Source: an uncultured Bdellovibrionales bacterium
GTDB lineage: Bacteria; Patescibacteriota; Minisyncoccia; Moranbacterales; UBA1568
DNA length: 64,000 bases
Direction: 5' to 3'
Assembly (NCBI GenBank): GCA_964398485.1
Contig: CAYNMD010000003.1
Span: forward strand, 1,334 to 65,333
Shown: one piece after another, positions 3,166 to 60,613 of the stretch
How the letters are laid out: each line of letters starts with the position of its first letter
How positions within the stretch are numbered: position 1 is the stretch's first letter
Position numbers and translations under genes: made by a program
Notes under the pieces: generated by a model
Databases searched by the model: none
What the model saw: only the letters and a program-made list of their open reading frames with translations
Told to the model about the DNA's origin: nothing

Positions 3166-3168
3166 TCT

Positions 3169-4596: not shown

Positions 4597-5351
4597 ATAA
4601 ACTTGAATTAACAAGAGAGAATTTTCGTTTGCTTGCATCAATTATTTCATCTGCTACATCTGGGACGCTCTTTACTAAATTATTGATGGACGCCGGTTGG
4701 ACACCAGAATCAACGGCTTCACAGGCGTGGCAATTAGCAAGAAAATCCAAAGAAGACTATCTCTTTGATCAATTTGTGCAAATTGCAGAGCAAGGACGTG
4801 AGGACATTGTTGAGTTTGTTGTGGAGAAAACAATCATAAAAAGTAGTGTTTACTTCAAGAAAGGAGATAAAGACTATAAGTTTCCTCGAGATACCTTTAC
4901 GGCTCTAAAGAAAAAAGTTGGTAAAAAAGAAGTTGTTTTACAAAAGAAGGACGTTAAACTTTTTAATGAGAGGAAGTTTCACCCCTCAGTAGTTTTCGCA
5001 AGCAAGAGGCTTTTTTCCGATGGATACTATTCACAAGCAATCTTTGAGGCCTGCAAACTTTTAAATAAAAGAGTACAAGAACGCTCTGGTTCATCAAAAG
5101 ATGGAAAATCTTTGATGCTGGATGTTTTCAGTGTCAATAATCCTAGACTTAAATTCTCTGATATAACAAGTCAGTCAGGAAGAGATGAACAGGAGGGCTT
5201 TATGCATATCTTTGCTGGAGTAATGCAGGGAGTTAGAAACCCAAAGGGTCACGACATTATAGATCTCAGGGATTCGAGTCGTGCCTTGGAGTATATGAGT
5301 ATTGTGAGTCTTCTTTTTAGGAAGTTGGAGGAAATAGATAATGGAAAATAG
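4593..5351 (+). CDS. HEPN/Abi_C-like (TIGR02391-like) protein embedded in hsd operon
   Basis: C-terminal FAGVMQGVRNPKGHDIIDL carries an Rx4H HEPN-type motif (RNxxxH as in Abi_C); start ATG overlaps hsdM stop (ATGA at 4593-4596). Confidence 0.5.
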   Translation: MNKLELTRENFRLLASIISSATSGTLFTKLLMDAGWTPESTASQAWQLARKSKEDYLFDQFVQIAEQGREDIVEFVVEKTIIKSSVYFKKGDKDYKFPRDTFTALKKKVGKKEVVLQKKDVKLFNERKFHPSVVFASKRLFSDGYYSQAIFEACKLLNKRVQERSGSSKDGKSLMLDVFSVNNPRLKFSDITSQSGRDEQEGFMHIFAGVMQGVRNPKGHDIIDLRDSSRALEYMSIVSLLFRKLEEIDNGK

Positions 5352-6138
5352 AACCAAGTTTTTTATTTTTAGTGACGAGTCAGGAAGCTGGCATGATCCA
5401 GCAGATATTTACGTTAGGTCATGGGTCGTAATAACAAGTGAAGAATATAACAAGCTGCTGGCCAAGGTTGATGAAATTGCTAGTTTTATCGGATCAAAAG
5501 AACTATCGTGGAATACTTTAGCAGGCAACAAGAACCTCTTTCACTCATTTGATGGGATTAGTTTTAGGATTTTTATTACGGTCTCTTGTCCAAAAGATAT
5601 TTCATGGGGTACGAAATATCGGCTGACGAAAAATTTTGAAACGAGTATATTAGGTTTTGATTTTGGTGAGCTGGATGAAGGTTTAAGGGCATACATTAAA
5701 GATAGGATTTATAAAGATATAAAGAATGCATTATTTTTAAACTTCTATGAAAGGTATCATATTGAAAATGCAAAAAAGGGGATTGAACGCGTTATCAAAC
5801 CAACTGATTATGATTTGATATATCGTATTGATCCTCCACAGATGCCCCAAGAAGGATGGAAGAATATACTACAGAAAGTTGATAACTCTTCTTCAATTAA
5901 TATAGAATTTCCAAAATCAAGCCGGACACAAGGGATACAATTTGCAGATGTGGTTGCTGGTTGTTTCCGATCCTTGCTTTTAAAGGGTAGAAAGTTTGAA
6001 GAGTCAAAAGAGTTTTTAAAAGTTATTAAAGATCGCATTATACAGAAGAATAAGGAGAACCCAAATCCAAATCTAATATTTTTTGGAGAAATGAACAACG
6101 ATATAAAGTTAAACTGTGCAGATATCTGGAAGTACTGA
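5341..6138 (+). CDS. DUF3800-family protein embedded in hsd operon
   Basis: N-terminal FIFSDESGSW (DES motif) and C-terminal IQFADVVAGC (QxAD motif) typical of DUF3800; GGAGG RBS 9 nt upstream; overlaps previous gene by 11 nt. Confidence 0.5.
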   Translation: MENRTKFFIFSDESGSWHDPADIYVRSWVVITSEEYNKLLAKVDEIASFIGSKELSWNTLAGNKNLFHSFDGISFRIFITVSCPKDISWGTKYRLTKNFETSILGFDFGELDEGLRAYIKDRIYKDIKNALFLNFYERYHIENAKKGIERVIKPTDYDLIYRIDPPQMPQEGWKNILQKVDNSSSINIEFPKSSRTQGIQFADVVAGCFRSLLLKGRKFEESKEFLKVIKDRIIQKNKENPNPNLIFFGEMNNDIKLNCADIWKY

Positions 6139-6142
6139 ATTT

Positions 6143-7324
6143 ATGAACTACCCAACAAAAAAACTTGGAGAGGTTTGTGGAGTTGTTGGTGGGGGGACGC
6201 CATCGACAAAAGTTAGTGAATATTGGGGCAACAAATACCATTGGGTAACACCGAAGGACTTGGGCCAGTTGAAGAGTGTAGAGATTTCCCAGACCAATAA
6301 ACAAATTACCGATAGTGGATTAAGGGACTCTTCGGCAAAACTGCTTCCCGCTGGATCTGTTATCCTCTCATCTCGTGCCCCTATTGGATATGTTGCAATT
6401 AATACTGTGCCAATGGCTACGAATCAAGGATGTCGCAGTTTCGTATGTGGGCCGAAAGTTTTTAATAAGTATCTGTATTACTTTTTGATCGCCTCCCATG
6501 ACTATCTTCAAACATTGGGAGGCGGCTCAACTTTTCTTGAAGTTTCCGGATCACGTCTGAAAGAGATTGAAATCCGGGTTCCGCCTATTAGGGAGCAGGG
6601 GAAGATTGTTGCGAAGATAGAACGGCAATTTGCCAAGATGGACGAGGCCGCGCGGTTGCGCGCGGAGAGTGAGGCTCTTGCCGAAAAACTCCTCCCCGCC
6701 GCCCTCCACGAAATCTTCTCCTCACACAATTGGGATTTGGTCTCTCTCAGTGATGTGGTTACGAGTTTTCAATACGGTAGTTCAAAAAAAGCCTCTGATA
6801 TTGGTGAGGTTGTGTGTGTAAGAATGGGTAACTTACAGAGCGGTGAAATCGATTGGACAAATCTGAAATATGCTCCAGATAATGAAGAATTAGAGAAATT
6901 TTTTCTACGTGATGGTGATGTATTATTTAACCGTACCAACAGTCCTGAGCTTGTGGGCAAGACCGCAATTTATCGGGGTGATAGGCCCGCCATATTTGCT
7001 GGTTATTTGATTCGTATAAACTACGTACGGGATAAAGTGCTAGGACAATATTTAAACTATTGTCTTAATTCTGATTTTGCAAAAGACTTCTGTCAGAGAG
7101 TTAAAACGGATGGAGTAAGTCAGTCTAATATTAATGCGCAGAAGCTTGCAACATTTACCTTCCCACTTCCACCGCTTACAGAACAAAAGAAGATTGTGAA
7201 AAAGTTGGATGCTCTCGCTGAAAAGGTGAAGGCCCTCCGCGAGCTGCAGGCAGCTCAAGCAGCCGATCTCAAAGCCCTCAAGCAATCCATCCTCCATCAG
7301 GCATTCAGTGGAGATGGGAAGTAG
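6143..7324 (+). CDS. hsdS: type I RM specificity subunit (HsdS)
   Basis: Two target-recognition-domain halves separated by conserved coiled-coil repeats (LPPLTEQKKIVKKLDAL...; central AKMDEAARLRAESEALAEKLL); ATG at 6143 verified, 4 nt after DUF3800 stop. Confidence 0.85.
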   Translation: MNYPTKKLGEVCGVVGGGTPSTKVSEYWGNKYHWVTPKDLGQLKSVEISQTNKQITDSGLRDSSAKLLPAGSVILSSRAPIGYVAINTVPMATNQGCRSFVCGPKVFNKYLYYFLIASHDYLQTLGGGSTFLEVSGSRLKEIEIRVPPIREQGKIVAKIERQFAKMDEAARLRAESEALAEKLLPAALHEIFSSHNWDLVSLSDVVTSFQYGSSKKASDIGEVVCVRMGNLQSGEIDWTNLKYAPDNEELEKFFLRDGDVLFNRTNSPELVGKTAIYRGDRPAIFAGYLIRINYVRDKVLGQYLNYCLNSDFAKDFCQRVKTDGVSQSNINAQKLATFTFPLPPLTEQKKIVKKLDALAEKVKALRELQAAQAADLKALKQSILHQAFSGDGK

Positions 7325-7635: not shown

Positions 7636-8001
7636 ATGCCAAAAAAAGTTGAGACAGTAAGTGAATATATCATGACAGCACCAGCTTGGGCGCGGCCGAC
7701 GCTGCGAGAACTCCGTCGAGTGATTCGTGCCGCCGCTCCCAAGGCGAAGGAATCAATTAGTTATCACATGCCCTACTATGCCGAGGAAGGGCGCGTGGCG
7801 TATTTTGGAGCGTACCGAGATCACTGCAGTTTCCATTGGGTGAGTAGCGAGGACAAGCGAGAACTGAGTGAGGTTCTGAAAAAAGTGAAAGTAGCAGGGA
7901 GTACGCTGCATATTCCGCGCGGGGAGCGGGTACCGGTGAGAGTGATCACTCAATTGGTGCGAGCTCATGTGAAACATAATCTCGCTAAAAAGAGAAGATA
8001 G
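7636..8001 (+). CDS. DUF1801 (YdhG-like) domain protein
   Basis: 121 aa, PAWARPTLRELRRVIRAAAP...YHMPYY pattern typical of DUF1801. Confidence 0.45.
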   Translation: MPKKVETVSEYIMTAPAWARPTLRELRRVIRAAAPKAKESISYHMPYYAEEGRVAYFGAYRDHCSFHWVSSEDKRELSEVLKKVKVAGSTLHIPRGERVPVRVITQLVRAHVKHNLAKKRR

Positions 8002-8062: not shown

Positions 8063-8548
8063 ATGCATACAGCAGTTTTTACCAAAGATCTCGAACAGGG
8101 GACGCTTCGGGTCGAGCGCATGTTTGATGCCGCACCTGAGAAAGTGTGGCAGGCACATACACAGAGTGAGCTTCTTGGTGAATGGTGGGCACCCAAGCCA
8201 TGGAAAGCCGTGACGGTCTCGATGGATTTTCGTGAGGGAGGGAAGTGGCTCTATTACATGCTCGGGCCCGAGGGTGAGCGGCATTACTGCACGCAGACCT
8301 ATGAAACAATTGAGCCTGGGAAAAGCTTTATGGGTGAAGATTATTTTTGTGATGAAAACGGAGTGAAAAAAGAAGATATGCCCGTCTCTCACTGGACGAT
8401 GCAGCTCGTGCCACAGGAAAATGGTACAGAGATGATAACGACGGTGCGTTATGCCAAAGCGGATGATCTTCGCAAAGTAATTGAGATGGGCATGGAGGAG
8501 GGGTATGCCATGGGACTCAATCAGCTTGAGGCGTTCCTCAATAAATAA
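8063..8548 (+). CDS. SRPBCC / AHSA1-like (activator of Hsp90 ATPase homolog) domain protein
   Basis: FDAAPEKVWQAHTQSELLGEWWAPKPW pattern of AHSA1/polyketide-cyclase START-like fold. Confidence 0.55.
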   Translation: MHTAVFTKDLEQGTLRVERMFDAAPEKVWQAHTQSELLGEWWAPKPWKAVTVSMDFREGGKWLYYMLGPEGERHYCTQTYETIEPGKSFMGEDYFCDENGVKKEDMPVSHWTMQLVPQENGTEMITTVRYAKADDLRKVIEMGMEEGYAMGLNQLEAFLNK

Positions 8549-8565
8549 TTTTCTATCTTTTATAT

Positions 8566-9000
8566 ATGGCCAGAGTCAGTACCTATCTCAATTTTACTAA
8601 TCAAACAGAGCAGGCTTTCCATTTTTATCAAGAAGTGTTTGGGACACAATTGGTTGGCGAAGTGGCTCGTTTTGGAGACATACCACCTGCTGAGGGTATG
8701 CCGCCGCTTTCTGAGGAAGACAAACAGTTAGTCATGCATATGGAGCTCCCGATACTCGGTGGACATGTGCTTATGGGTACCGATGCTCCGGCTTCGATGG
8801 GCTTTGCGGTACAGCAGGGTAATGCTACTCACATCAATCTTGAACCAGATGCTCTAGAGGAAGCGAAGCGCTTGTTTGATGCGCTTTCTCAAGGGGGGAA
8901 AGTGGATATGCCTCTCCAAAAAATGTTTTGGGGTGCTCACTTTGCATCCTTTACGGATCGTTTTGGCGTGCACTGGATGATAAACTGTGCGGGAGCGTAG
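8566..9000 (+). CDS. VOC-family (glyoxalase/PhnB-like) protein
   Basis: YLNFTNQTEQAFHFYQEVFG...MHMELPILGGHVLMGTD...MFWGAHFASFTDRFGVHWMIN typical PhnB-like VOC fold. Confidence 0.55.
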   Translation: MARVSTYLNFTNQTEQAFHFYQEVFGTQLVGEVARFGDIPPAEGMPPLSEEDKQLVMHMELPILGGHVLMGTDAPASMGFAVQQGNATHINLEPDALEEAKRLFDALSQGGKVDMPLQKMFWGAHFASFTDRFGVHWMINCAGA

Positions 9001-9008
9001 GGAAGAGT

Positions 9009-9284
9009 ATGGGCGCGCTGCATCGAGTCCCTCAGGATCTCAAAGCAATTCTCGATAGTCAGTCTGATGTACGAAAGCAGTGGGAGAGTCTCACTCCACT
9101 TGCGCGGAATGAGTGGGTTTGTTATGTCACCATCGTCAAGAAACCTGAAACGAGAGCGAGCCATCTCCAAAGACTCGTGAGTGATCTCCGTGGTGGTAAA
9201 CGTCGTCCCTGCTGTTGGCCAGGCTGCCCACATCGTCGGCCCGAGGCTGCCAAATGGTTTGGTAAAAGAATGGCTAAAGTATAG
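9009..9284 (+). CDS. YdeI/OmpD-associated family protein
   Basis: PQDLKAILDSQSDVRKQWESLTPLARNEWVCYV pattern; ATG at 9009 chosen because the longer ORF overlaps previous gene. Confidence 0.4.
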   Translation: MGALHRVPQDLKAILDSQSDVRKQWESLTPLARNEWVCYVTIVKKPETRASHLQRLVSDLRGGKRRPCCWPGCPHRRPEAAKWFGKRMAKV

Positions 9285-9286
9285 AC

Positions 9287-9826
9287 ATGTTCCAGTACAC
9301 TGTGCGAAAAAGACGAGGGGCCAAGTATCTCCGGTTGAGAGTAGTTCCTCCTGGTGAGATTATTATTTCCGCCCCGACCTGGCTCGGAGGAGAGGCGATC
9401 GAGCAGTTTCTCGAAGAAAAGGCAGCGTGGCTCCGGGCCAAGCTTTCTCTCGTGAAGCATATCCCTCGGCGCCGAACGAAAAGAGAAGAGCGGCGAGACT
9501 ATGAAGAGAAAAAAGAAACAGCAAGAACTCTCGTAGAGGAGTGCGTGGTGAGACTCAATCAGGGCTATCGGTTTCCGGTCGGTCGCATCACGATCCGCAA
9601 TCAGAAAACTCGTTGGGGGAGCTGTTCGAGTCAGGGGAACCTGAGTTTTAATTACCGGATCGTTTATCTTTCGCCGAGAGAACGAGACTATATCGTCGTA
9701 CATGAACTCTGTCATCTCAAAGAAATGAATCACTCGCCTCGCTTTTGGGCGCTGGTGGAGAAAGCTATGCCGGATTACCTGGTGCTGCGGCGACGCTTGC
9801 GAGAACAGGGGAAGCTTTTGTACTAG
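9287..9826 (+). CDS. YgjP-like metal-dependent hydrolase (DUF45/M48-like, HExxH)
   Basis: [46 protein letters not shown] with HELCH zinc motif. Confidence 0.6.
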
Positions 9827-14190: not shown

Positions 14191-15012
14191 ATGATTGAGT
14201 GGTGGCAGACGCTTCCTCAGTTTATTGATCCAGTTGCCTTTTCTCCGTTTGGGTTTCCAATTCCTTGGTACACCATCTGTTATCTTCTGGGGGTTATTTT
14301 TGCAACCATTTTTTTTGTGAGTCTTTTGAGGCGCAAGGGGCTAGTGATTTCCGAAGATGGAACCATAGAGCTCATCGTTTCAGTACTCTGGGGAGTAATT
14401 ATTGGAGCTCGACTTGGCTATGTGCTCTTCTATGGAGATAGTAGTTATTGGGAGGAACCATGGAGGATTATTTCCCCATACGACTTTACTCTGGGTGAAT
14501 GGATAGGTATCCGGGGACTCAGTTTTCATGGTGGACTTATCGGAGGAGCAATTGGTTTGTGGCGATTCACTCGTGAAGGAAACAGGGATTTTTGGGGAAT
14601 AGCGGATGCTTTGGTACAAGCGGTACCTATTGGGATTTTATTTGGCCGGTTGGGGAATTTTTTGAATCATGAAATTCCGGGCAAAATTACGGAACTCGCT
14701 ATAGGCATGCAGTGGTTTTTAGAGGAGGGGGTATTGCGCCATCCCGTGACGCTCTATGAGGCACTTGCTGAAGGAGGGTTACTCTTTTTCTTCTTGGTGC
14801 TGGTCAATCGATTACAGGCGAGGTCTGGTAACGTTACAGCCCTCTTTCTTATTGGATATGGAGTGATTCGGTTTGTTATGGAATTTTTTCGTGAGGTAAG
14901 CATCATTCAGAGTCTGGGTATTACTGCAGGCCAGGCACTATCAACAGTACTTGTTTTATGGGGAGTACTCCTTCTTTTTAGGCAATCTCGCCAACCGCTT
15001 GTGGTACAATAG
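14191..15012 (+). CDS. lgt: prolipoprotein diacylglyceryl transferase
   Basis: Lgt signature GRLGNFLNHE and YGxxxG-containing TM pattern. Confidence 0.8.
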   Translation: MIEWWQTLPQFIDPVAFSPFGFPIPWYTICYLLGVIFATIFFVSLLRRKGLVISEDGTIELIVSVLWGVIIGARLGYVLFYGDSSYWEEPWRIISPYDFTLGEWIGIRGLSFHGGLIGGAIGLWRFTREGNRDFWGIADALVQAVPIGILFGRLGNFLNHEIPGKITELAIGMQWFLEEGVLRHPVTLYEALAEGGLLFFFLVLVNRLQARSGNVTALFLIGYGVIRFVMEFFREVSIIQSLGITAGQALSTVLVLWGVLLLFRQSRQPLVVQ

Positions 15013-15058: not shown

Positions 15059-16057
15059 ATGCGTCGATCATACCAAAATCAACATCACGAACCATTATCT
15101 ACTCGCCGTATTCTTGATGGTGTAGTACGGGGTGTTTTTGACACACCGAAGCCAGTTCATTTTGAGAACAAGCCACTGGTTACTCCACCAATGGTACGAG
15201 CCAGGAGACAGCTTGATGCTGTGCTGCTTCGAGAAAAAGAAAAGCGGGGCTGGTCATATCGAACGTCTCGAGTGGCGAGAGTGCTCTTTTTTCGTCGGCT
15301 TCAGATATGGAATCGAAGATTTATGCGACGCCTGGGCCGTTTTCTCCCTGATTTTGACGGTATCCCGCCTAAAAAAGCTCTGTATGCATCCCTTATTGGA
15401 GGGGTAAGTTTTGGCATGGTAGCCATGTCAATGTTTCAGGGTTTTACCGATAAAAATGCCGAGGCTATGCCGGTAGCCACTGTTGCAGAACCTGCTTCTC
15501 AAGAAGTGATTAGTCGCGAGCTTGGTATCGAAAATCAAAGGTATAATCCAGATAATGATATTTTCCTTCAATTCTTCACTGAATCTGAAAAAGAGGAGTA
15601 CGGTGAGCAAATTCGTTCACTGGTGGCTGGGTATCCAATCGAGGACATGCTCCCTTATATTTTGGAAAAGGATCGGGTAGTAGCTGCTTTTTTGGTTGGT
15701 ATCGCCAAGAAAGAGTCTAACTGGGGGAAACGTGTACCAGTCTTGGATGGTCAGGATTGCTTTAACTATTGGGGCTACCGAGGTGTGCGGCGACTGATGG
15801 GTACGGGTGGACATACCTGCTTTAATAGTCGTAAAGATGCTGTTGATACGGTAGCTAGTCGTTTGGAAAAACTCATCCATTCTAACAAACTGGATACTCC
15901 GGCTAAGATGATTATCTGGAAGTGTGGGTATAGTTGTGATGGACATAGTCGTGAGAGTGTTCGCAAGTGGATCGCTGATGTTGATATGTATTTCCAGGAG
16001 CTTCAGGGAACGGATGAAGAGGATGGTTTAGTGATGAATCCAGCAGTTACTCCATAG
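15059..16057 (+). CDS. membrane-anchored protein with C-terminal GH73 (glucosaminidase)-like domain; paralog of 16401..17210
   Basis: TM segment ALYASLIGGVSFGMVAMSMF; C-terminal FLVGIAKKESNWGKR...FNYWGYRG resembles ESGWG/NxFGIKG motifs of FlgJ/Atl glucosaminidase domains; four conserved Cys. Confidence 0.4.
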   Translation: MRRSYQNQHHEPLSTRRILDGVVRGVFDTPKPVHFENKPLVTPPMVRARRQLDAVLLREKEKRGWSYRTSRVARVLFFRRLQIWNRRFMRRLGRFLPDFDGIPPKKALYASLIGGVSFGMVAMSMFQGFTDKNAEAMPVATVAEPASQEVISRELGIENQRYNPDNDIFLQFFTESEKEEYGEQIRSLVAGYPIEDMLPYILEKDRVVAAFLVGIAKKESNWGKRVPVLDGQDCFNYWGYRGVRRLMGTGGHTCFNSRKDAVDTVASRLEKLIHSNKLDTPAKMIIWKCGYSCDGHSRESVRKWIADVDMYFQELQGTDEEDGLVMNPAVTP

Positions 16058-16097
16058 GTGTTCGGTCGAGAGAGGGTTTTATAGAGAAAAAAACAAT

Positions 16098-16190
16098 ATG
16101 CAAGAAATGAAACTTGATCTTAGGCGGGTGGCCCCACTCGCGTTAGGGCTTACTACATTGGCTGTGATGGCGGCTTTTCTTTTGGCCTAA
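16098..16190 (+). CDS. possible 30-aa hydrophobic micro-protein between the paralogs
   Basis: ATG ORF MQEMKLDLRRVAPLALGLTTLAVMAAFLLA followed by terminator-like hairpin; below ORF-track size cutoff. Confidence 0.2.
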   Translation: MQEMKLDLRRVAPLALGLTTLAVMAAFLLA

Positions 16191-16400: not shown

Positions 16401-17210
16401 ATGATACATTCTCCCTACAATTGCTTTCCAGGTCGTCAGGCCTTAGTGGTTTCCTCCCTTCAGAAGCGAGTCTTCTTGAGGAGTGCCTCTCTTTTCCTCC
16501 TGATTTCTCTCCTTGGTTTTTCTTTCTTCGTCCCTCCTTCGGTGATGGCGGCAGAGGCTCCTTCCCTAGAAAAAGAGGAGACTTTGGAGTTTTCGTTAGA
16601 TGATTTTGAACAGCGGTTTTCATTGGGTAATCAAACCAAGGATCTTTGTGCATGGGAACGTGATTTGGGGTTTTTCCTCTCTCGTGAGCGCGCTACCGAA
16701 AGTAGGGTTGAGACTATTGATTGTACCGAAAGACTACAGAATACTGCTTTGCGTGAAATGAAACCGGAGTATCAATCTGGCGATAGCGAGCTCAAGCAGG
16801 AGATTCAAGAACTTGCCAAAGGATTCCCTCTTGAGGAAATGGCAGGAGCTATTGCTCGCTATGATAGAGAAATTGCTGGTCTTATAGTTGGTATCGGAAA
16901 GAAAGAATCAAACTGGGGAAAGCGAACTCCTAAGCTTCTCGGTGAGGAATGCTATAACTATTGGGGCTATCGAGGAGTGGGTACGCGCGGGTTTACCCCG
17001 GATGGTTATGGTTGCTGGGAGAAGCCTGAAGAAGCCGTCAAGGCTATTGGTGACCGATTGGTGAAACTACGTGAAATCAGGCTTAGTGCTGAACCAGCTC
17101 GGATGATTGTCTGGAAATGTGGTAATTCCTGTGCTGGACATAGCGACGAGAGTGTTCGCAAGTGGATTGCTGATGTGAACTTTTATTTCCAAGAAATCGC
17201 GAGAAATTAA
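16401..17210 (+). CDS. secreted protein with GH73 (glucosaminidase)-like domain; paralog of 15059..16057
   Basis: Signal-peptide-like LFLLISLLGFSFFVPPSVMAAEA; IVGIGKKESNWGKRTP...YNYWGYRG...KCGNSCAGHSDESVRKWIADVNFYFQE is a near-copy of the C-terminus of the upstream gene. Confidence 0.4.
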   Translation: MIHSPYNCFPGRQALVVSSLQKRVFLRSASLFLLISLLGFSFFVPPSVMAAEAPSLEKEETLEFSLDDFEQRFSLGNQTKDLCAWERDLGFFLSRERATESRVETIDCTERLQNTALREMKPEYQSGDSELKQEIQELAKGFPLEEMAGAIARYDREIAGLIVGIGKKESNWGKRTPKLLGEECYNYWGYRGVGTRGFTPDGYGCWEKPEEAVKAIGDRLVKLREIRLSAEPARMIVWKCGNSCAGHSDESVRKWIADVNFYFQEIARN

Positions 17211-52808: not shown

Positions 52809-54743
52809 ATGGCAAAAATTCTTGGTATCGACCTCGGAACCACCAACTCGGCAATGTCAATTGTCGAAGGTGGGAGTCCATCGGTCATTGAAAACAAGGA
52901 GGGGAATCGCACCACTCCATCGATGGTAGCGATCAGTAAAACGGGGGAGCGTCTCGTGGGACTCCTTGCCAAGCGGCAAGCCGTCACCAATCCCGAGAAC
53001 ACTCTCTTCTCAGTCAAGCGCCTCATCGGTCGCCGTTTTGAGGACGACGAAGTGCAGCGTGACATGAAGACTCTTCCCTACAAAGTGATCAAGGCCGAGC
53101 ATGGCGTCAAAGTTGTGATGGGTGGCAAGGAATACAGTCCACAGGAAATCTCGGCTATGGTCCTCCAAAAGCTCAAGAGTGATGCCGAAGAAAAGCTTGG
53201 TGAGAAAATTACCGACGCCGTGATTACGGTCCCAGCGTATTTCGATGATGCCCAGCGCAAAGCTACCAAAGAAGCTGGGGAAATTGCTGGTCTCAATGTC
53301 CGTCGTATCATCAATGAACCAACTGCCGCCGCGCTCGCCTATGGCTTCAACAAGAAGAAAGACGAGAAGATCGCCGTCTATGACCTCGGTGGTGGTACGT
53401 TTGATATCTCTATCCTCGAAGTATCCGAAGATACCGTCGAAGTGAAATCAACCAATGGCGATACCCATCTTGGTGGTGATGACTTTGATCAGAAAATCAT
53501 TCACTGGATCTTGGATGAGTTCAAGAAACAAGAAGGACTCGACCTCTCAAAGGATCCACTCGCTCTCCAGCGTATCAAGGAGTCAGCTGAAAAGGCCAAG
53601 ATCGAGCTTTCGACTGCCATGGAGACCGAAATCAATCAGCCATTTATTACGAGTGGTGCCGATGGTCCCAAGCACCTCGTCATGAAACTCACCCGCGCCA
53701 AACTCGAAGAGCTCGTCCATGAGCTCGTGCAGGGGACGCTCGAACCAGTGAAGAAAGCCCTCGCCGATGCCAAGCTCAGCGCCAGTGACATCAATGAAGT
53801 AGTCATGGTGGGTGGTATGACCCGAATGCCCTTGGTTCTCGCGACCGTGGAGAAATTCTTTGGGAAGAAACCCAATATCTCGGTGAATCCGGATGAAGTC
53901 GTCGCTGTCGGTGCCGCTATCCAGGGAGGAGTCTTGGAGGGATCGGTCAAAGACGTGCTCCTTCTCGATGTGACTCCACTGACCTTTGGGATCGAGACTC
54001 TTGGTGGCGTACGGACACCCCTCATCGAGCGCAACACCACTATTCCTGCGAGCCGCTCTCAGGTTTTCTCGACGGCTGCCGACAATCAGCCGCAGGTCGA
54101 GATCCACGTGCTCCAGGGTGAGCGTGAAATGGCTGCCGATAACAAGTCTCTCGGCCGTTTTGTCCTCGATGGTATCCCACCAGCGCCTCGTGGCATCCCA
54201 CAGATCGAAGTCTCCTTTGATATCGATGCTAGTGGCATCCTCTCGGTCACGGCCAAAGACAAAGCTAGTGGCAAAACCCAGTCGATCCGTATCGAAAGCT
54301 CGACCGGTCTCTCCAAAGAAGAAGTGGAACGCATGAAAAAAGATGCCGAGCTCCACGCCGAGGAAGATAAGCGCAAGAAAGAGTTGATCGAGGCTCGCAA
54401 TATGGCCGATACGCTTGCCTACAGTACCGAAAAGGCTATGCGTGATGCCGGAGACAAAATTACGGCCGATGAGAAGAAACCAGTCGAAGAAGCCATCACC
54501 GCGCTCAACGCTGTGAAGAATGGTGATGACCTGGAGGCTATCAAGAAAGCGACTGAAAATCTCTCACAGGCCGCTCAGAAAATTGGTGAGAAACTCTACA
54601 GGGCTGCCCAAGAAGCCCAGGCTGCTCAGACAGGAGCTACTGGTGCTGATACTCCCAAGGCAGATGAGGAAAATGCTCCAAAGGACGCGGAAGTGGAGGA
54701 GAAGCCAAAGGATGAGGGTGCCAGTGAACAACCGAAACAGTAA
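52809..54743 (+). CDS. dnaK: molecular chaperone DnaK
   Basis: [19 protein letters not shown], full Hsp70 NBD+SBD. Confidence 0.95.
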
Positions 54744-54792: not shown

Positions 54793-55392
54793 ATGTCGCA
54801 AGTTGATCCGTATTATTGGTTTGTCCAGGGGCGTCAATATTTGATCGCTGCTGAGACATTATTAGATCGAATAATAAAAAATGGAAATCAATTATCTTAT
54901 GTTGGCAAACCATTGAAAGATAAGGCCATTGAGAAAAGACTAGATAGTAATGATGCTTATTTATTTTTTCCATTGATGCTGTTGTTCTACCACGGTATTG
55001 AGCTATTCTTAAAAGCACTGTACATAATCGAAAATGGTAAAAGATACAAAAATGATCACGAAATTACCTCAATTTTAAATGCAGTAGACAAGAATACGGA
55101 TTTCAAGGTAATTGTTGATGAGGTTAAAAAATATACTTATTTCCTAGACAAAAATTTCCCAGAGTTTCATCAATGGTTAACTCTCAATAAATTTACGATC
55201 GATTCCTTCTACTTGTTTCTAAGGTATCCATCTACCACGATAGGTAAACGTCCGGGAATTGAAATTTTTCAAATCGAAGTACTGGGTCTAGAAACTAAAA
55301 CATTACCCCATTATCGTAAATTAAGAGCCGCAATTAGAAGCATTATCAAAGGTGGAGTAATAGTACTTCGTAAACATAAAGGTGTTAAATAA
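54793..55392 (+). CDS. hypothetical protein, strongly AT-rich ORF (possible HEPN-like Rx4H motif)
   Basis: 199 aa, about 30% GC versus about 46% host; GKRYKNDHEITSIL contains R-x4-H; ATG at 54793 just after dnaK terminator. Confidence 0.4.
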   Translation: MSQVDPYYWFVQGRQYLIAAETLLDRIIKNGNQLSYVGKPLKDKAIEKRLDSNDAYLFFPLMLLFYHGIELFLKALYIIENGKRYKNDHEITSILNAVDKNTDFKVIVDEVKKYTYFLDKNFPEFHQWLTLNKFTIDSFYLFLRYPSTTIGKRPGIEIFQIEVLGLETKTLPHYRKLRAAIRSIIKGGVIVLRKHKGVK

Positions 55393-55465
55393 ACATGGTT
55401 TTATGTCTCAACAAATCTTCATCATCTACATCACCCACTTTAGTCTGGCTGAAGCCAAGCGGGGG

Positions 55466-55510
55466 TAAAAAATTCAAACGGCGACACCTAGGTGGGGTCG
55501 CCGCTTTGTT
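55466..55510 (-). terminator. repeat hairpin copy 1 (minus-strand terminator of 55533..56177)
   Basis: + strand AAAAAATTCAAACGGCGACACC-taggt-GGGGTCGCCG; on minus strand reads hairpin then TTTGAATTTTTT. Confidence 0.55.
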
Positions 55511-55532
55511 TGCTGGCTGTTGCCAGATTGGA

Positions 55533-56177
55533 TCAGGCGCGGCGATAGCGTCGCGTCTGGATGGGCGCTTCCGAGAAGTTGCGCTCGAAGAAGTTGGTGA
55601 GCCAGGTGGCGATCATGAAGCCGCCGATGAAGGAGAAGGCGACTGCCGCCAAGAGGAGGAACAGGATGAAGATTCGTCCATCACGACTCTCGGAGAGCGT
55701 TTCACTCACGAACTCACCCACTTCGCTGGCGGCTTTGCCGGTGTGTTGGATGGCACCCCAGGTGTTGTGGAGCTGTGCTCCCACGTTGTACACCGCCGAA
55801 CCGACCGAAGCGAAGTCGCGCCGCTCGAACGCAGCCTTGACCGAGTGAATGGTGATGGCCAATCCTGTTCCGAGCAGGGGAATGATGATTGCCACGTACC
55901 AGAGATCGAAGATAGCCTTCATGAACTGCTTGGCTTCTTCGGGTGTCAGTTTCGGCTCTTCACCAGTCGTGAGCCAGGCAGTGGCCAGAAACGCGAACAG
56001 GATGAGGAGCGGCATCGAAAAGCCGATACCAGCCTGGAACTTGGCGCTCCAGAGAACGAAACGGAGGAAGGCACCACCCTGAGCTCGCACCACTTGGCGC
56101 GACACGCCCACCACATAGCAGTTCCAGGTCGCGATCGCGATGTTGAGAGCGAGCAGGAAGAAAACCAATGCGCTCAT
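55533..56177 (-). CDS. polytopic membrane protein (cassette gene 1, GC-rich)
   Basis: 214 aa, 5-6 TM helices; AAGGTGA RBS 7 nt upstream of ATG; flanked by the repeat promoter module and repeat terminator. Confidence 0.45.
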   Translation of the reverse strand: MSALVFFLLALNIAIATWNCYVVGVSRQVVRAQGGAFLRFVLWSAKFQAGIGFSMPLLILFAFLATAWLTTGEEPKLTPEEAKQFMKAIFDLWYVAIIIPLLGTGLAITIHSVKAAFERRDFASVGSAVYNVGAQLHNTWGAIQHTGKAASEVGEFVSETLSESRDGRIFILFLLLAAVAFSFIGGFMIATWLTNFFERNFSEAPIQTRRYRRA

Positions 56178-56240
56178 AGATCGGTCACCTTTGCAAAGGA
56201 CTCGATACGGATGCAGCCGATCCTGGTTGGAGAAAATCTA

Positions 56241-56290
56241 CCAACGAGATATTAAAGCATTTTATCGGATAAAAATCAAGGGTGTATAAT
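56241..56290. repeat. promoter module copy 1 (bidirectional)
   Basis: CCAACGAGATATTAAAGCATTTTATCGGATAAAAATCAAGG shared with 57540..57582; minus-strand reading gives TTGATT-17-TTTAAT; plus strand has TGTATAAT extended -10 (56283-56290) before DUF3467 gene. Confidence 0.5.
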
Positions 56291-56322
56291 AAGCAGTATA
56301 ATGAGTAAAGAAAATTCGTTGT

Positions 56323-56619
56323 ATGACTCAACCACAAACAAATCAAATTCAAATCAAGGCGAGTGATGACAAGGTAAAGGGGGAGTATGCCAACATGATG
56401 CAGGTGATGCACACCCAAGAAGAATTTGTCGTTGATTTCCTCAATGTGTTTCCGCCAGCAGGGACTCTCAACGCTCGTGTTATCGTCAGTCCTGGCCATA
56501 TGAAGCGCATCGTGGCAGCACTCGCGGACAATCTCGCTAAGTATGAAAAGCAATTCGGAGCGGTGAAGCCCAGTGATGCTCCTACTCAGAACCCCATCGG
56601 TTTTACAGATAGGGGGTAG
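56323..56619 (+). CDS. DUF3467 family protein
   Basis: 98 aa; GEYANMMQVMHTQEEFVVDFLNVFPP...ARVIVSPGHMKRIVAALADNLAKYEKQFG pattern of DUF3467. Confidence 0.45.
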   Translation: MTQPQTNQIQIKASDDKVKGEYANMMQVMHTQEEFVVDFLNVFPPAGTLNARVIVSPGHMKRIVAALADNLAKYEKQFGAVKPSDAPTQNPIGFTDRG

Positions 56620-56825
56620 TATCTATGTTGACAGAAATTTAATTTAATGATATTTTTTTGGTGCCCTCGGCTCATCAAGAGCTTAGCGTCATGAAAGGTG
56701 GGGGATGGTTGGTTGCATACGCTAGTGACCCAAAACCGCAATAGAGAGTTGGACGTCTCTATTGGCTATCGTCTAACGGAATAGCTCGGTCTCCATGTGG
56801 GACGCGGGCTTTTCATTTTTTTGGT

Positions 56826-56870
56826 CTATAAATTCAAACGGCGACCTTGTGGTGGGGTCGCCGCTTTGTT
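56826..56870 (-). terminator. repeat hairpin copy 2 (minus-strand terminator of 56890..57486)
   Basis: ATAAATTCAAACGGCGACC-ttgtggt-GGGGTCGCCG, same element as copies 1 and 3. Confidence 0.55.
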
Positions 56871-56889
56871 TCCGGTGTTCCGGATGGGG

Positions 56890-57486
56890 TCAATCAAAGG
56901 TGCTGTCGGGTCCTGTAGCGGCAGTCTCGATGGCACCTCCGCCGGAGTCTCCGCTGCGGGCAACGGGTTCGGCCAGAGTATCAGCCGACGCTGCGCTCTG
57001 CTGCGGTCGTGCGTAGCAGGCGGCTCCAGAGTCTTGTGGTTTGATGGGCTCGCCCGTAGCGTCAACAGCATCAGCTTTCGGGTCGCAGGGACGACCATCT
57101 GTCTCCAAACTCTCGGGACGAATCGCGTCACGGATGACCTCGACGACCACTGCGCCAGCCTGGACCACATCGGCGATGTCATCGAGATCAATGTCGACCT
57201 CATCACCGTTAGGCTGGACGGAGGGAGCGGCACGCCGTTCCGATTGTGGGTGGAGTTGGCGAGTCGACGTTGGTCTGGAGGTCGCTTGGGCAGACGGTCG
57301 CCCAAATGGGTACTGGATCTCTTCGGCAGTCAGTTCCCTGATACCAGTTGACCGAGCACGCCGAGCGAGCCGCTGCCGCTCTTCCTCTGCTTCCTGCTTG
57401 CTCTTGCGGCGCGACCAGAGCAGGCCAACGATGGCGAACAGCAGAATGACACAGCCTAAAGCCCACAACAGGGTTTCGATGGACAT
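56890..57486 (-). CDS. N-terminally TM-anchored protein (cassette gene 2, GC-rich)
   Basis: 198 aa; TM LLWALGCVILLFAIVGLLW then charged/acidic Ala/Pro-rich domain; AGGAGA RBS 5 nt upstream. Confidence 0.4.
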   Translation of the reverse strand: MSIETLLWALGCVILLFAIVGLLWSRRKSKQEAEEERQRLARRARSTGIRELTAEEIQYPFGRPSAQATSRPTSTRQLHPQSERRAAPSVQPNGDEVDIDLDDIADVVQAGAVVVEVIRDAIRPESLETDGRPCDPKADAVDATGEPIKPQDSGAACYARPQQSAASADTLAEPVARSGDSGGGAIETAATGPDSTFD

Positions 57487-57539
57487 GGGTTCTCCTGAAA
57501 GGTGCTGTTTCTCAGCTTTTTGAGCTGGCTGGTGAGCAA

Positions 57540-57598
57540 TTCACCAACAGAGTATTAAAGCATTTTATCGGATAAAAATCAATGGCTACTGTATAACT
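57540..57598. repeat. promoter module copy 2
   Basis: CCAACAGAGTATTAAAGCATTTTATCGGATAAAAATCAATGG (about 90% identical to copy 1), followed by TGTATAAC. Confidence 0.5.
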
Positions 57599-57619
57599 TA
57601 AAAAATCTAAAATTAAGTA

Positions 57620-57660
57620 TAAAAAAATTCAAACGGCGACACCTGGGTAGGGTCGCCGTC
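57620..57660 (-). terminator. repeat hairpin copy 3 (minus-strand terminator of 57715..57954)
   Basis: AAAAAATTCAAACGGCGACACC-tgggt-AGGGTCGCCG. Confidence 0.55.
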
Positions 57661-57714
57661 GTAGTTGTGGCTGCTGCCAAATTTGAAGCCCTGACGCAAT
57701 GGTAGCGTGACCAT

Positions 57715-57954
57715 CTACCATGGATCATCCTTGGATGGACAAACAATTTGAGTAGAGGCGAAGTCGCCAACGTCCTGGCCTATCCATTCGGGTGGACAGG
57801 GTGTCCATTGGCCATCGTCAGCATCGAAGACATCACCCCGCTTGACCGTCTCTGGTGATCGGCGAAGTTTCCCGTAACACCAGTTGTGATCATTTCTAGA
57901 GTGAGTGTGAAACTCATCACTTGTTTGGGAATTTCCCCTAAAAGGAAATGACAT
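57715..57954 (-). CDS. small Cys-containing protein (cassette gene 3)
   Basis: 79 aa; GGGAGA RBS 6 nt upstream; own TTGACA-17-TAAATA promoter (rc of about 58011-58045). Confidence 0.35.
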   Translation of the reverse strand: MSFPFRGNSQTSDEFHTHSRNDHNWCYGKLRRSPETVKRGDVFDADDGQWTPCPPEWIGQDVGDFASTQIVCPSKDDPW

Positions 57955-58447
57955 GCTGATCTCCCGTGATCAGATCTTCAACAAGGGACCCCTTGCTGAT
58001 TGCTGGTATATTTACAGGCTTTGAGCGTAAATGTCAACGAAACTTCCCTTTACAAGCGCTCTTTTTGTGCTAGGCTAGAGCCGGATCAAGGCGCCAAGGG
58101 GGCGTAGTACACTGCTCAGTCCGATCCGTTTTTTCGTTCGTTTCGTGTTTTTCTTTACGTGTACTTGAGCAAAGACCCGTCATCTCATGTGGCGGGGAGC
58201 GGGGCAGTAGCGCCCTGCATTCGTGTTTCCTTGTGGCGATCCCCGGCGGATCTGGCATCGACGCCTGTCGAGCCTGCCCTCCGACGGGGCGACGGGGACC
58301 CGGCTGTCCAATGAAAGCCACCCCCACGCAGCCCGGGTTCCGTGCGACCTGTTGCAGCTTTTGGCTGCGAGCCTGACCGACGGTGAGCCCCCTTGGCCAA
58401 CGTACGGAAATTTGGTTCTTTTCAACTCATTCTCTCGGGAGTATGCC
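57955..58447 (+). ncRNA. GC-rich structured non-coding region upstream of RT (candidate retron msr-msd or DRT-type ncRNA)
   Basis: About 490 nt without credible ORF (only overlapping GC-frame ORFs), multiple hairpins (CGGATC...GATCCG + T-run at 58095-58160; GCAGC-tttt-GCTGC at 58365-58380; GGGACCCGG...CCCGGGTTCC), ends at RT RBS. Confidence 0.35.
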
Positions 58448-59530
58448 ATGCTTGACATGATACTGCACCCGAGAACAATCGCGGTGCTCTGTGGTGGCTG
58501 GCCCACTATCGAATTTCACGAGAAGCTTGTCCGTGGGAAAAAACGGCTAATCGGCTCACCCAATCGAGCGATGAAAAGGCTCCACGAGCTCTTTGGCCAA
58601 TACCTCAAGCAAGCTATCAGCGCGACCAGAAGCGATGGCTATGGGGTGCGCAAGCTTCCTTCATCATTTGGTTGTGTACCGGGTTCGAACCCGATGAAAA
58701 ATGCCAACGAGCATGCCAAAGGTCAGTGGTGCTTCTATATCACTGACCTTTTTGACGCTTATGGCCACGTTTCGCTAGAGCGACTGGCACGTTTAGTGAC
58801 CTTCATCCTTCGTTATGAGGACTACGCTGATGAGGTTTCGCTTGGCTGGTTTGGTCTCGATGATCGCACAGAGTATCTGACACGTGACTCCGCGTATGCG
58901 CCTACGCTAAGTTTTCTGCGGGCTCACTTTGCTGGGCAATACGGAAGAGGATTGGCTATTGGGGGACCGCTATCGCCGTACCTCATGAACCTCTACTGCG
59001 AAGTGTTTGTTGACATGCCGCTCCGCAAACTCTGCGAACGACGTGAAATTACCTACACTCGCTATGTTGATGACCTGGTTTTTTCGGCCAATCAGTTCAT
59101 TGGAAGAGAGACAAGAAGGAGAATTCGGGCCATCATTGAGCGTGGCGGCTTTAGCGTCAATCACAAGAAGTCGTGGGTGAGACTCCACTCAATGGGTCAG
59201 GCGAGCGTGACCAAGTGGGGTATCGAACGCCAAGCTAACGATGGGCGGGTACTACGTATCACCTACCCTCAGCGCAAGCGGCGACTCCTCCACGGCATCA
59301 TCCACAGTTATCTCACCCAACAAATGGACTGGCCGGAAAAGGTAAGTGGCTGCGTAGCAGAGTTCCTCTACTACTACAAACAAGCGGAGCGGAGCGGGAT
59401 GCTCACTGCTACCGACCACAAGACAATGGAGCTGTGCCTACAGTTCAAGACTGAGTGGGACAAGTACGGTGGGCCCAAGTACCAATTGGGTCGACGCTAT
59501 CAGGCAAAACTTCGTGCGAGAAAGCGCTGA
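58448..59530 (+). CDS. reverse transcriptase (retron/DRT-type, RT domain only)
   Basis: RT motifs: ITDLFDAY (motif A), GLAIGGPLSPYLMNLY (QGxxxSP-type motif B'), YTRYVDDLVFS (YxDD motif C), VNHKKS (motif D/E); NANEH resembles retron NAxxH; 361 aa, no maturase/endonuclease domain; ATG at 58448 with GGGAG RBS. Confidence 0.8.
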   Translation: MLDMILHPRTIAVLCGGWPTIEFHEKLVRGKKRLIGSPNRAMKRLHELFGQYLKQAISATRSDGYGVRKLPSSFGCVPGSNPMKNANEHAKGQWCFYITDLFDAYGHVSLERLARLVTFILRYEDYADEVSLGWFGLDDRTEYLTRDSAYAPTLSFLRAHFAGQYGRGLAIGGPLSPYLMNLYCEVFVDMPLRKLCERREITYTRYVDDLVFSANQFIGRETRRRIRAIIERGGFSVNHKKSWVRLHSMGQASVTKWGIERQANDGRVLRITYPQRKRRLLHGIIHSYLTQQMDWPEKVSGCVAEFLYYYKQAERSGMLTATDHKTMELCLQFKTEWDKYGGPKYQLGRRYQAKLRARKR

Positions 59531-59647: not shown

Positions 59648-60613
59648 ATGCTCGAAAAACTCAAGAACATCTTCTATCGACCAGACTTTTTTCGAAGACA
59701 AGAATTTACTACTGGTCAGGCGCTCTCATTTTATTCCCTCTCCGTTTTCTTTCTCGTTCTTGGTCTTTCACTGATCCTTATCCCAGCCGCCTGGGGGATA
59801 AACCGTTTTTTTGAGTCAGCCCAGTGGCAAGAACAAAAGCAAATTATCGAGACACTCTATCCAGCTGGTCTCGTGCTTACTTTGGAACATGGCAAACTGA
59901 CTACCAATCAAGCTGCCCCCGTTGTTATTCCCTTTCCCAAGGAATGGGTAAAAAATGGTGCCTGCAACAAAAAGAAACATTGTGAACAGCGCGAACTTCC
60001 AGTGAATCTCTTGGTGATAGATAAAAGTGCTGAGCTCTCTCGCAAAGCTATCGAGTCTCGTGATACCCTCGTTCTCGCAAGTGAAACCGAAATTGGCATG
60101 AGCAACCCTCGTCGAGGTGAAACCAGAATATTTAGTACGGCTGAATTCAACTTTGATCAAAAGATTGTCGTAAATAAGGACTCCTTCGTTTACTGGATAA
60201 ATCGAGGAGCGAGTATAGTTCAAACAGCTATCCTTTTTCTCCTTGCTGTGCTCCCACTCATCATGTTTGTGGTGCTTTGGGTAGGGTACATCATGTACAG
60301 TCTCTTGGGCGCACTCGTGGTATGGCTCGCTGCTCATATCAGAAATCACCGGCTTACGTATGGGCGGGCATATCTTTCGACACTCTATTTGCTCCCAGCC
60401 TCATTTCTTATGATGGTGGTTATGTCAGCAATGAGTTATCGTATCCCGCTTCTCTTTACGATTATTCTCTTTGGTATGGCGCTCCTCAATTTTGACCGGC
60501 GGGCCAAGGAAAAAGTTCTTCCAGGGCCATTTACTGATACTCATGCAGCTGTAATCCAAGAGGCCCCAACCACTCCTGCACGACCAACTTCTGAGAATAA
60601 AGAGATCTCATAG
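59648..60613 (+). CDS. polytopic membrane protein (DUF1189-like), host-like composition
   Basis: 321 aa; N-terminal TM, about 150-aa soluble segment, then four TM helices; AT-rich like host. Confidence 0.4.
   Translation: MLEKLKNIFYRPDFFRRQEFTTGQALSFYSLSVFFLVLGLSLILIPAAWGINRFFESAQWQEQKQIIETLYPAGLVLTLEHGKLTTNQAAPVVIPFPKEWVKNGACNKKKHCEQRELPVNLLVIDKSAELSRKAIESRDTLVLASETEIGMSNPRRGETRIFSTAEFNFDQKIVVNKDSFVYWINRGASIVQTAILFLLAVLPLIMFVVLWVGYIMYSLLGALVVWLAAHIRNHRLTYGRAYLSTLYLLPASFLMMVVMSAMSYRIPLLFTIILFGMALLNFDRRAKEKVLPGPFTDTHAAVIQEAPTTPARPTSENKEIS

Follow-up and report, generated by a model that had tools for sequence, protein, structure and literature searches.

The 64,000-nt stretch analysed here (the window, from contig CAYNMD010000003.1 of an uncultured bacterium) carries three minus-strand genes, coding for proteins of 214, 198 and 79 aa, each of which is followed by a copy of the same hairpin element, W. 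Each of the three genes also has, by sequence, one of two promoter-like modules, P or Q, upstream, so that each would form a self-sufficient unit of promoter, open reading frame (ORF) and terminator. We propose, with a probability of roughly 60%, that W is a Rho-independent terminator within a portable regulatory toolkit, and that the repeats of this toolkit offer homology for the shuffling of gene cassettes. The three units are flanked by dnaK (52809-54743) and by a DUF1189 gene (59648-60613), and the window is a piece of cellular chromosome, encoding a type I restriction system, PGK, enolase, AlaRS, CysRS, DnaB, FtsA, CorA and hrcA-grpE-dnaK.

A terminator-like hairpin repeated behind three genes

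The 16-mer AAATTCAAACGGCGAC occurs exactly three times on the plus strand of the window, at 55470, 56830 and 57625, and allowing up to three mismatches revealed no further match in the 64 kb. A repeat search gave a 42-nt alignment of 55470-55511 with 56830-56871 (88%) and with 57625-57666 (83%). All three of these W copies have invariant arms, CGGCGAC and GTCGCCG, and the tail TTTGAATTT; they differ only in the 11-nt loop and in the flanks. W and P are the sole intergenic repeat families of at least 28 nt in the window, the remaining repeats lying within two paralogous genes near 15-17 kb.

On the minus strand W folds into a stable hairpin, with a free energy of -26.5 kcal/mol in a 76-nt context (z = -4.7) and -25.8 kcal/mol in a 73-nt context (z = -5.6); copy 3 reaches -31.4 kcal/mol in a 106-nt context (z = -3.3). 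The GC-rich stem of 10-11 bp is followed in each copy by UUUGAAUUU, and the tails read UUUGAAUUUUUU in copies 1 and 3 and a weaker UUUGAAUUUAUAG in copy 2. The hairpin starts 26, 23 and 56 nt past the stop codons of the 214-, 198- and 79-aa genes, respectively, and each copy shares its strand orientation with the gene upstream. W therefore has the features by which intrinsic terminators are recognized, namely a stable GC-rich stem-loop, a 3' U-rich tract and a co-oriented position just past a stop codon, and transcription of the three genes is predicted to end there. The original prediction had reported a 45-nt hairpin and T-run downstream of these minus-strand stop codons. Our alignment of the copies and search for more bear this out: the gaps to the stop codons are 23-56 nt, and the repeat is confined to this locus, all three copies lying inside 2.2 kb and not one in the remaining 62 kb of the window.

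Conservation extends further than first described, over about 66-70 nt, and takes in a small hairpin upstream in which the changes are compensatory (GGCaacaGCC / CCGGaacaCCGG / GGCagcaGCC). In an alignment of 10 W copies, 94% of stem cells are paired, and two pairs are changed on both sides in divergent members. Copies 1 and 2 lie between convergent genes and carry a 5' A-tract, owing to which the opposite strand also reads as a hairpin with a T-rich tail; W may terminate transcription in both directions at these two places. Copy 3 lies between tandem genes and is without the A-tract. The core of W is a nearly perfect 28-nt palindrome, AAACGGCGACACCTAGGTGTCGCCGTTT, with a 3-nt bulge.

A scan of genome contigs for ATTCAAACGGCGAC-N4-16-GTCGCCG returned 14 single chance-level matches in unrelated taxa and no related genome. 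A metagenome scan found one related contig (LLBZ010001347.1, assembly LLBZ01) and one chance match, and a scan of the viral contigs of IMG/VR found no W. Rfam gave nothing at the gathering threshold over the window (the top sub-threshold match, Atu_C9 at 16.8 bits against a threshold of 40, is meaningless), and ARAGORN reported no tRNA.

A short extragenic palindrome in several near-identical copies 3' of genes could also be a selfish repeat, of the repetitive extragenic palindrome (REP), bacterial interspersed mosaic element (BIME) or miniature inverted-repeat transposable element type, that is tolerated or has been co-opted as a terminator. We regard this as very unlikely. The copy numbers given above are not those of the ubiquitous REP-like repeat that the original prediction had held out as the finding that would speak against it: W is concentrated in 2.2 kb, the metagenome scan matched a single LLBZ01 contig, and the genome contigs of unrelated taxa yielded single chance-level matches. 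Moreover, W has no terminal inverted repeat with a target-site duplication, no REP-associated tyrosine transposase (RAYT) was seen among the 30 largest ORFs of the window, and every copy is co-oriented with its upstream gene.

Promoter-like modules ahead of the same genes

A second repeat, overlooked in the original prediction, lies ahead of the 214-aa and 198-aa genes. This module, P, is identical over 30 nt and similar over 48-77 nt, and the exact repeat (56250-56279 and 57553-57582) spans the -35 to -10 region. Read on the minus strand, it consists of TTGATT, a 17-nt spacer and TTTAAT, followed about 5 bases on by a stem-loop (GTTGGTGA..TCACCA or GTTGGTAGA..TCTCCAAC). P thus resembles a sigma-70 promoter with a 5' stem-loop and is predicted to act as one. 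The copy ahead of the 214-aa gene looks chimeric: from -35 to -10 it is identical to that of the 198-aa gene in the same genome, and its 5' untranslated region (UTR) resembles that of the orthologue in a related genome (L019, see below). The 79-aa gene is preceded by a different promoter-like module, Q, whose -35 hexamer is the exact start of a block common to the window and two related loci, L016 and L040. In scans of viral contigs, Q and the terminator Y (described below) gave chance-level matches and P gave none; nothing could be extended under nhmmer.

The cargo genes share nothing but their modules

Outside the modules, no similarity was found among the 214-, 198- and 79-aa genes at either the protein or the DNA level. 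Tandem gene duplication was considered as the origin of the three units and rejected, because the genes are alike only in their modules. The original prediction had called them consecutive, unrelated and GC-rich. They are indeed unrelated. They are not strictly consecutive, as the 198- and 214-aa units have a DUF3467 gene on the plus strand between them, along with about 200 nt that are non-coding, and GC-rich applies to two of them: the GC content is 59% for the 214-aa gene, 62% for the 198-aa gene and 49% for the 79-aa gene, compared to 53% for dnaK and 46% for the window.

Searches of Pfam and PADLOC with the three cargo proteins came back empty. In PHROGs, the 214-aa protein alone had a match, to phrog_37671, a phage family without assigned function, and it has distant relatives on GC-rich viral contigs. 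A homologue search with the 198-aa protein returned close homologues only, and the 79-aa family is found at the island edge in five related genomes. AlphaFold modelled the 214-aa protein as a five-helix bundle and the 79-aa protein as a small beta fold (mean predicted confidence, pLDDT, 83 and 72, respectively). A fold search of the PDB with these two models gave nothing at E < 0.1.

Modules and genes occur in different combinations across related genomes

To compare the locus, related loci (numbered L001 onwards) were recovered from other assemblies by exact and near-exact protein look-ups. L001 and L041 are of the same strain; L016-L018, L039 and L040 are strains with about 94-95% DNA identity; and L019-L026, L033-L037 and L038 (which includes L032) are more distant relatives whose orthologous genes are 66-80% identical. 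Between dnaK and DUF1189 all of these relatives have an island that is hypervariable and consists of small genes, most of which lack a Pfam hit. The gene sets of the islands overlap from one relative to another, and both the number and the order of the genes differ. The cassette-number and -order comparison proposed in the original prediction comes out in favour of variable cassettes.

Profile searches built from the window and a few relatives recovered four module families across the islands: the predicted promoters P and Q and the terminators W and X/Y, the last with the core ACCGACC..GGCCGGT. All module matches are oriented like the cassette genes and none lies in the sampled housekeeping flanks; in at least five genomes the modules are confined to the dnaK-DUF1189 island.

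Genes and modules are not fixed to one another. The 198-aa gene ends in W in the window and in Y in L016 and L040, the sequences agreeing through the small hairpin and then diverging. On its 3' side the 214-aa gene has W in the window and X in L019; its counterpart in L039 is succeeded first by a 76-aa gene and then by the beginning of a hairpin resembling Y. Conversely, in L038 at least two other genes have W behind them, and in L033 one gene has a W-like copy. Behind the 79-aa gene of L033 there is a W variant whose stem is altered on both sides (CGGCAGC / GCTGCCG) with the loop unchanged. P is found ahead of three genes (the 214-aa gene, the 198-aa gene and an 83-aa gene in L038) and Q ahead of at least five different genes, and the terminator-promoter junction types W-P, W-Q, Y-Q and X-P are all present. 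L019 has four transcription units in a row that all end in X, which is a different hairpin from W, and this array is, as read from its sequence, an independent repeat of the pattern seen in the window. Thus one gene occurs with different terminators, one terminator with different genes, and the blocks of homology mostly end at modules, which agrees with the modular assembly suggested by the original prediction.

Two further observations concern the shape of W. The W-like copy at 13067-13123 of L033 has the 3-nt bulge on the other side of its CCTAGG centre (ACCTAGGTAGG, compared to CCCACCTAGGT at 55479-55506 of the window); the outer flanks keep their orientation and the interior reads as if inverted. 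In addition, an outer frame, AACGGCAG..CTGCCGTTT, is common to W and to further terminator-like hairpins with different interiors, at 5231-5306, 7788-7863 and 11292-11367 of L038, at 17239 of L033 and at 13126 (minus strand) of L019. W may belong, as one branch, to a larger terminator family that is diversifying in this lineage.

Most homology breakpoints fall at the modules

Among the three blocks of homology that the window shares with its relatives, five of the six ends lie in or at W, Y, Q or P (Table 1), which is a small sample. Two features of the relatives look like scars of earlier events: in L016 only the 3' half of a Y hairpin is left upstream of Q, and in L038 the Q behind one W copy is truncated and runs up against an AT-rich gene of convergent orientation. 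The position of the junctions varies, lying at a stop codon, 16 nt past it, between two hairpins or inside a loop. The lack of a single common position argues for homology-guided or illegitimate exchange and not for a site-specific cut.

The 40-nt core of W copy 3 is identical to that of an L038 copy at all 40 positions. Between the same two genomes, gene identity is 80% for dnaK, 80% for DUF3467, 69% for the 79-aa gene and 66% for DUF1189. As a control, the terminator of the orthologous dnaK genes keeps its stem across genomes and has a different loop in each. Taken together, these comparisons suggest that W is either under sequence-level constraint or recently spread, and the data fit both.

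A simpler account would be that these are ordinary terminators and promoters, alike through recent local duplication of the regulatory shell or through gene conversion, and without any role in moving genes. The copies all lie within 2.2 kb, the P modules of the 198- and 214-aa genes agree in 30 of 30 nt, the W copies of these two genes belong to the same subtype, and repeated terminators also lie past tandem paralogues in unrelated genomes. In one of these, a Geoanaerobacter metagenome-assembled genome (L010), two near-identical terminators (AACGGCGACCAATTGGTCGCCGTTTGA) lie about 890 nt apart at 4950-5060 and 5840-5950, behind the same last codons, and the pair looks like an ordinary tandem gene duplication. 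Local duplication would, however, leave several things unaccounted for: W copy 3 is closer to the copy in L038 (40/40, with genes at 66-80%) than to its two neighbours, the same four families occur in different combinations in at least five genomes, blocks end at modules, and half-Y and truncated-Q scars are present. We therefore consider it unlikely as the whole explanation. Local duplication or conversion probably contributes, in the P pair and in the pair of subtype W2, without explaining the combinations seen across genomes.

Portable modules as patches of homology

In the reading that we prefer, four portable modules (P and Q with their 5'-UTR stem-loop, W, and X/Y) would stand on either side of small genes, most of them ORFans, in the hyperplastic island that one uncultured bacterial lineage has between dnaK and DUF1189. 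Being 40-80 nt long and repeated within and between genomes, the modules amount to patches of homology, which recombination, gene conversion or incoming DNA could use to swap, delete or insert the genes between them. Throughout such exchanges the expression signals would stay put, with P and Q firing ahead of whichever gene had arrived and transcription ending at its terminator. By analogy with the repeated promoter and stem-loop motifs (PeSLs) of T4-type phages, the repeats probably guide the shuffling of cassettes, and we infer that the modules cause this shuffling rather than mark the borders of units.

Several points weigh against this proposal. The U-tract of copy 2 is interrupted, X as found in L019 folds weakly (-7.6 kcal/mol, z about 0), and both termination and promoter activity are predicted from sequence. 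Some junctions lie outside the modules, one at codon 5 of DUF3467 and one inside the reverse transcriptase gene described below (59175). Informative strain pairs are few, with about five junctions, and the partial similarity of W and Y may draw BLAST ends into the modules. The restriction of the modules to the island holds for the 64 kb and for the relatives that were fetched. Finally, 40 of 40 identical positions, loop included, exceed what a terminator needs, and this could reflect sequence-specific recognition or a very recent transfer.

The last of these points bears on the possibility that W is the site of a dedicated hairpin-processing or site-specific system, be it attC-like, of the IS110 or IS200/IS605 type, a group IIC intron target or the site of another recombinase. 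The palindrome is nearly perfect and its loop is conserved along with its stem, even across divergent genomes; the bulge of the L033 copy lies on the opposite side, as if the hairpin had been flipped; and the hairpin-bearing cassette genes of the sampled island stretches mostly point in the same direction, with one hairpin per transcription unit, like those of an integron array. On the other side, the 30 largest ORFs of the window include neither an integrase nor a transposase nor a RAYT, and the Pfam lists for the 10-20 kb around the islands of L016, L019, L033 and L038 show none either. In addition, the junctions have no single crossover point and the cassettes carry their own promoters. The attC core consensus is RYYYAAC / GTTRRRY; the ends of W (TTCAAAC / GTTTGAA) misfit it, and W is shorter than a typical attC. 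We judge a dedicated site distinctly unlikely. The missing enzymes and the variable junctions likewise speak against the small self-mobile hairpin element that the original prediction had offered as an alternative to recruited cassettes.

A related idea is that W may be the recognition hairpin of an undescribed cassette-handling system, integron-like and integrase-free. It is prompted by the near-perfect 28-nt palindrome, by a loop conserved at 40/40 where genes are 66-80% identical and by the apparently flipped L033 copy. Such a system might act on folded single strands in the course of natural transformation, or by reverse-transcribing cassette mRNAs with priming at the shared 3' hairpin, and would build and reshuffle arrays of self-expressed ORFan genes. 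We rate it a long shot.

If portable modules do guide the exchange, an uncultured lineage would diversify a chromosomal hotspot in the way T4-type phages diversify their hyperplastic regions, a small set of promoters and terminators keeping newly placed genes expressed and at the same time supplying homology for the next exchange. This would extend the PeSL mechanism to cellular genomes; to our knowledge, and in a limited literature search, PeSL-type modules have not been reported beyond T4-like phages, and a literature search for such islands in bacteria gave nothing relevant. The P, Q, W and X/Y motifs would also provide a handle for finding a variable gene pool in metagenomes. The poor assembly of the island, with gaps in a related assembly, would be explained as well. 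In that assembly (GCA_002838105.1, L038), runs of N lie inside the island at 14606-14820, 15111-15349, 15843-16099 and 16835-17066, which fits assembly trouble from repeated modules or strain heterogeneity. For annotation, identical terminators past unrelated genes would point to a recombination-prone cassette array, and not to an operon or to accessories of a reverse transcriptase.

The neighbouring retron-type reverse transcriptase

A retron-type unit lies on the plus strand beyond the Q module. Its reverse transcriptase (RT) matches Pfam RVT_1 and PADLOC RT_II-A (E = 7e-21). Upstream of the RT, an 11-nt perfect inverted repeat (GCCAAGGGGGC / GCCCCCTTGGC, 58093-58103 and 58387-58397) brackets a 305-nt GC-rich non-coding stretch, with a G directly after the first arm. 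The interval 58093-58397 is a plausible candidate for an msr-msd non-coding RNA with a1/a2 arms. No obvious effector gene is present on the RT strand, where the next gene is the conserved DUF1189 gene.

With a retron-like RT and a candidate non-coding RNA about 500 nt from the 79-aa gene, it could be imagined that the three mRNAs are labelled by their common 3' hairpin as templates or partners of this RT and that the cassette genes are its accessories or effectors; the original prediction had thought of effectors or accessory genes of the same island. In L016, which is from a strain 94% identical, an unrelated 419-aa AT-rich gene (8153-9785, compared to 58038-59174 of the window) replaces the candidate non-coding RNA and the N-terminal two-thirds of the RT, leaving an ORF of 112 aa with a match to the C-terminus of the RT; the cassettes of 79 and 196 aa are nevertheless kept, and so is their W copy. 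L040 has another gene and a Y hairpin in place of the RT, and in L019, L033 and L038, which carry homologues of the cassettes as well as arrays of W or X/Y, no RT was called within the 20 kb examined. Furthermore, the cassette genes are divergent from the RT, unlike retron effectors. A role for them as RT effectors or accessories is thus extremely unlikely, and the retron-type unit appears not to be functionally tied to the cassettes.

The 419-aa gene belongs to a family with paralogues in several islands (309 aa in L016, 192 and 250 aa in L019, 269 aa in L038). The family has no Pfam match and one marginal PADLOC match, to AbiEi (E = 0.0066), on the L038 member; for this AT-rich family and other island genes, PADLOC gave nothing convincing.

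Positions of the features and other contents of the window

The features discussed above are collected in Table 1.

Table 1. Modules, genes and shared homology blocks of the locus. Positions are those of the window unless another locus is named.
Feature	Position	Strand	Description
W copy 1 (subtype W2)	55464-55532	-	Small hairpin, A-rich linker, main hairpin (GCGGCGAC..GTCGCCG, core 55479-55506), then TTTGAATTTTTT; flanked by the 214-aa gene and, converging on it from the plus strand, an AT-rich HEPN-like gene; plus strand reads as hairpin and CTTTGTTT
214-aa cargo gene	55533-56177	-	Predicted five-helix membrane protein; 59% GC
P copy A	56213-56289	-	-35 TTGATT 56279-56274; 17-nt spacer; -10 TTTAAT 56256-56251; 5'-UTR stem-loop GTTGGTAGA..TCTCCAAC; 5' UTR like that of the L019 orthologue
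DUF3467 gene	56323-56619	+	Conserved island-edge gene between two P/W cassettes; no cassette member
W copy 2 (subtype W2)	56824-56889	-	Weaker tail TTTGAATTTATAG; plus strand reads as hairpin and CTTTGTTT; Y-type hairpin at the orthologous site of L016 and L040
198-aa cargo gene	56890-57486	-	N-terminal membrane anchor and acidic low-complexity tail; 62% GC
P copy B	57520-57591	-	-35 TTGATT 57582-57577; -10 TTTAAT 57559-57554; stem-loop TGGTGA..TCACCA; with W copy 3, 29 nt upstream, a composite terminator-promoter junction (57688-57520)
W copy 3 (subtype W1)	57621-57688	-	Between tandem genes; 40-nt core identical to an L038 copy
79-aa cargo gene	57715-57954	-	Small beta-rich protein with conserved Cys and Trp; 49% GC
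Q module	57969-58045	-	-35 TTGACA 58037-58032; 17-nt spacer; -10 TAAATA 58014-58009; 5' stem-loop CAGCAAGGG..CCCTTGTTG (57999-57978) ahead of the 79-aa gene
Retron-type unit	58093-59530	+	RT ORF probably starts near 58449, ends at 59530
Block shared with L016/L040	56852-58037		One end within the W/Y hairpin, the other at base 1 of the Q -35 hexamer
Block shared with L019	55533-56284		Ends at the stop codon and at the P -35 hexamer
Block shared with L039	55517-56337		Ends 16 nt past the stop codon and at DUF3467 codon 5 (a different gene continues in L039)
Block shared by L016 and L040	L016 9882-11111; L040 295-1535		Ends at Y repeats

From codon 6 on, the DUF3467 gene gives way in L039 to another gene, coding for a membrane protein. 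The interval between DUF3467 and W copy 2 may hold a small non-coding unit on the plus strand (56628-56825). It has a consensus-like promoter (TTGACA, 17 nt, TATTTT, with TG in front), followed by about 165 nt with several hairpins, and ends in GCUCGGUCUCC..GGGACGCGGGC and UUUUCAUUUUUUU. Its fold is like that of shuffled sequence (z = -1.0), it has no Rfam match, and the region is replaced in L016.

The other edge of the island is variable too, as relatives have unrelated AT-rich genes there. In the window this site holds an AT-rich gene (54793-55392, plus strand, 33% GC) directly past dnaK and converging on W copy 1, with a weak HEPN match (E = 0.0012) below the Pfam cut-off. A further defence-type cluster of the window is a type I restriction-modification operon (820-7324, plus strand) coding for HsdR, HsdM and HsdS, with Hypoth_Ymh and DUF3800 inserted between M and S.

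Comparison with known systems

Integron arrays offer one point of comparison. As in integrons, most sampled cassette genes point in the same direction, one imperfect palindrome lies 3' of each transcription unit, and the palindromes are homogeneous within a genome where cassette content is variable. The differences are that no attI was found, that no IntI turned up among the 30 largest ORFs of the window or in the Pfam lists for the islands of L016, L019, L033 and L038, that every cassette has a promoter to itself, that a T-run comes after the hairpin, which misfits the attC core, and that junction positions are not constant.

W also recalls REP and BIME repeats and the paired DNA uptake sequences (DUS) of Neisseria, in being a short GC-rich palindrome reused 3' of genes and able to terminate transcription or stabilize mRNA. 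REP, BIME and DUS elements are dispersed genome-wide in hundreds of copies, whereas W occupies one island of the window. The Neisseria DUS is GCCGTCTGAA, and the 3' arm of W, GCCGTTTGAA, is one base off; we rejected a reading of this arm as an uptake sequence and treat the likeness as coincidence, because W is not dispersed.

Closer likenesses are found in phages. Morons are phage genes with their own promoter and terminator and a deviating GC content (Cumby, Davidson and Maxwell 2012, PMC3594210). The cassettes resemble them in being, by sequence, independent units, in a presence that varies between relatives, and in the membership of the 214-aa protein in phrog_37671. As to GC content, two of the three genes, at 59-62%, deviate from the 46% of the window, while the 79-aa gene has 49% and dnaK 53%. 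They differ from morons in that they do not lie in a recognizable prophage (no phage structural or integration genes were found near the units), in that they form an array at one chromosomal hotspot, and in drawing their promoters and terminators from a small shared set, which is outside the definition of a moron.

In T4-type phages, PeSL motifs in hyperplastic regions bound insertions and deletions between close relatives (PMC2839356), and they have been proposed to mediate shuffling (Arbiol et al. 2010, PMC2839356; Comeau et al. 2014, PMC4122927). The modules described here differ from them in several respects: the host is a cellular chromosome and not a T4-like phage; the PeSL is a single composite motif of about 100 bp, whereas promoter and terminator are separable here and occur in four combinations (W-P, W-Q, Y-Q and X-P); the promoters here have a conserved 5'-UTR stem-loop; mini-circles and activity assays belong to the PeSLs, the present case being one of sequence; and no module was found in IMG/VR contigs. 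The likeness lies in how the parts are arranged and used. In both cases sigma-70-like promoters and terminator stem-loops are concentrated in an ORFan-rich hyperplastic region, and in both the motifs bound insertions, deletions and replacements between close relatives, in a small sample here. In both, too, the motifs would give expression signals together with homology for recombination, as at the composite terminator-promoter junction between the 198- and 79-aa units. Because the host is cellular, the modules are separable and IMG/VR is without them, we describe the toolkit as working like PeSLs and morons rather than as a member of either.

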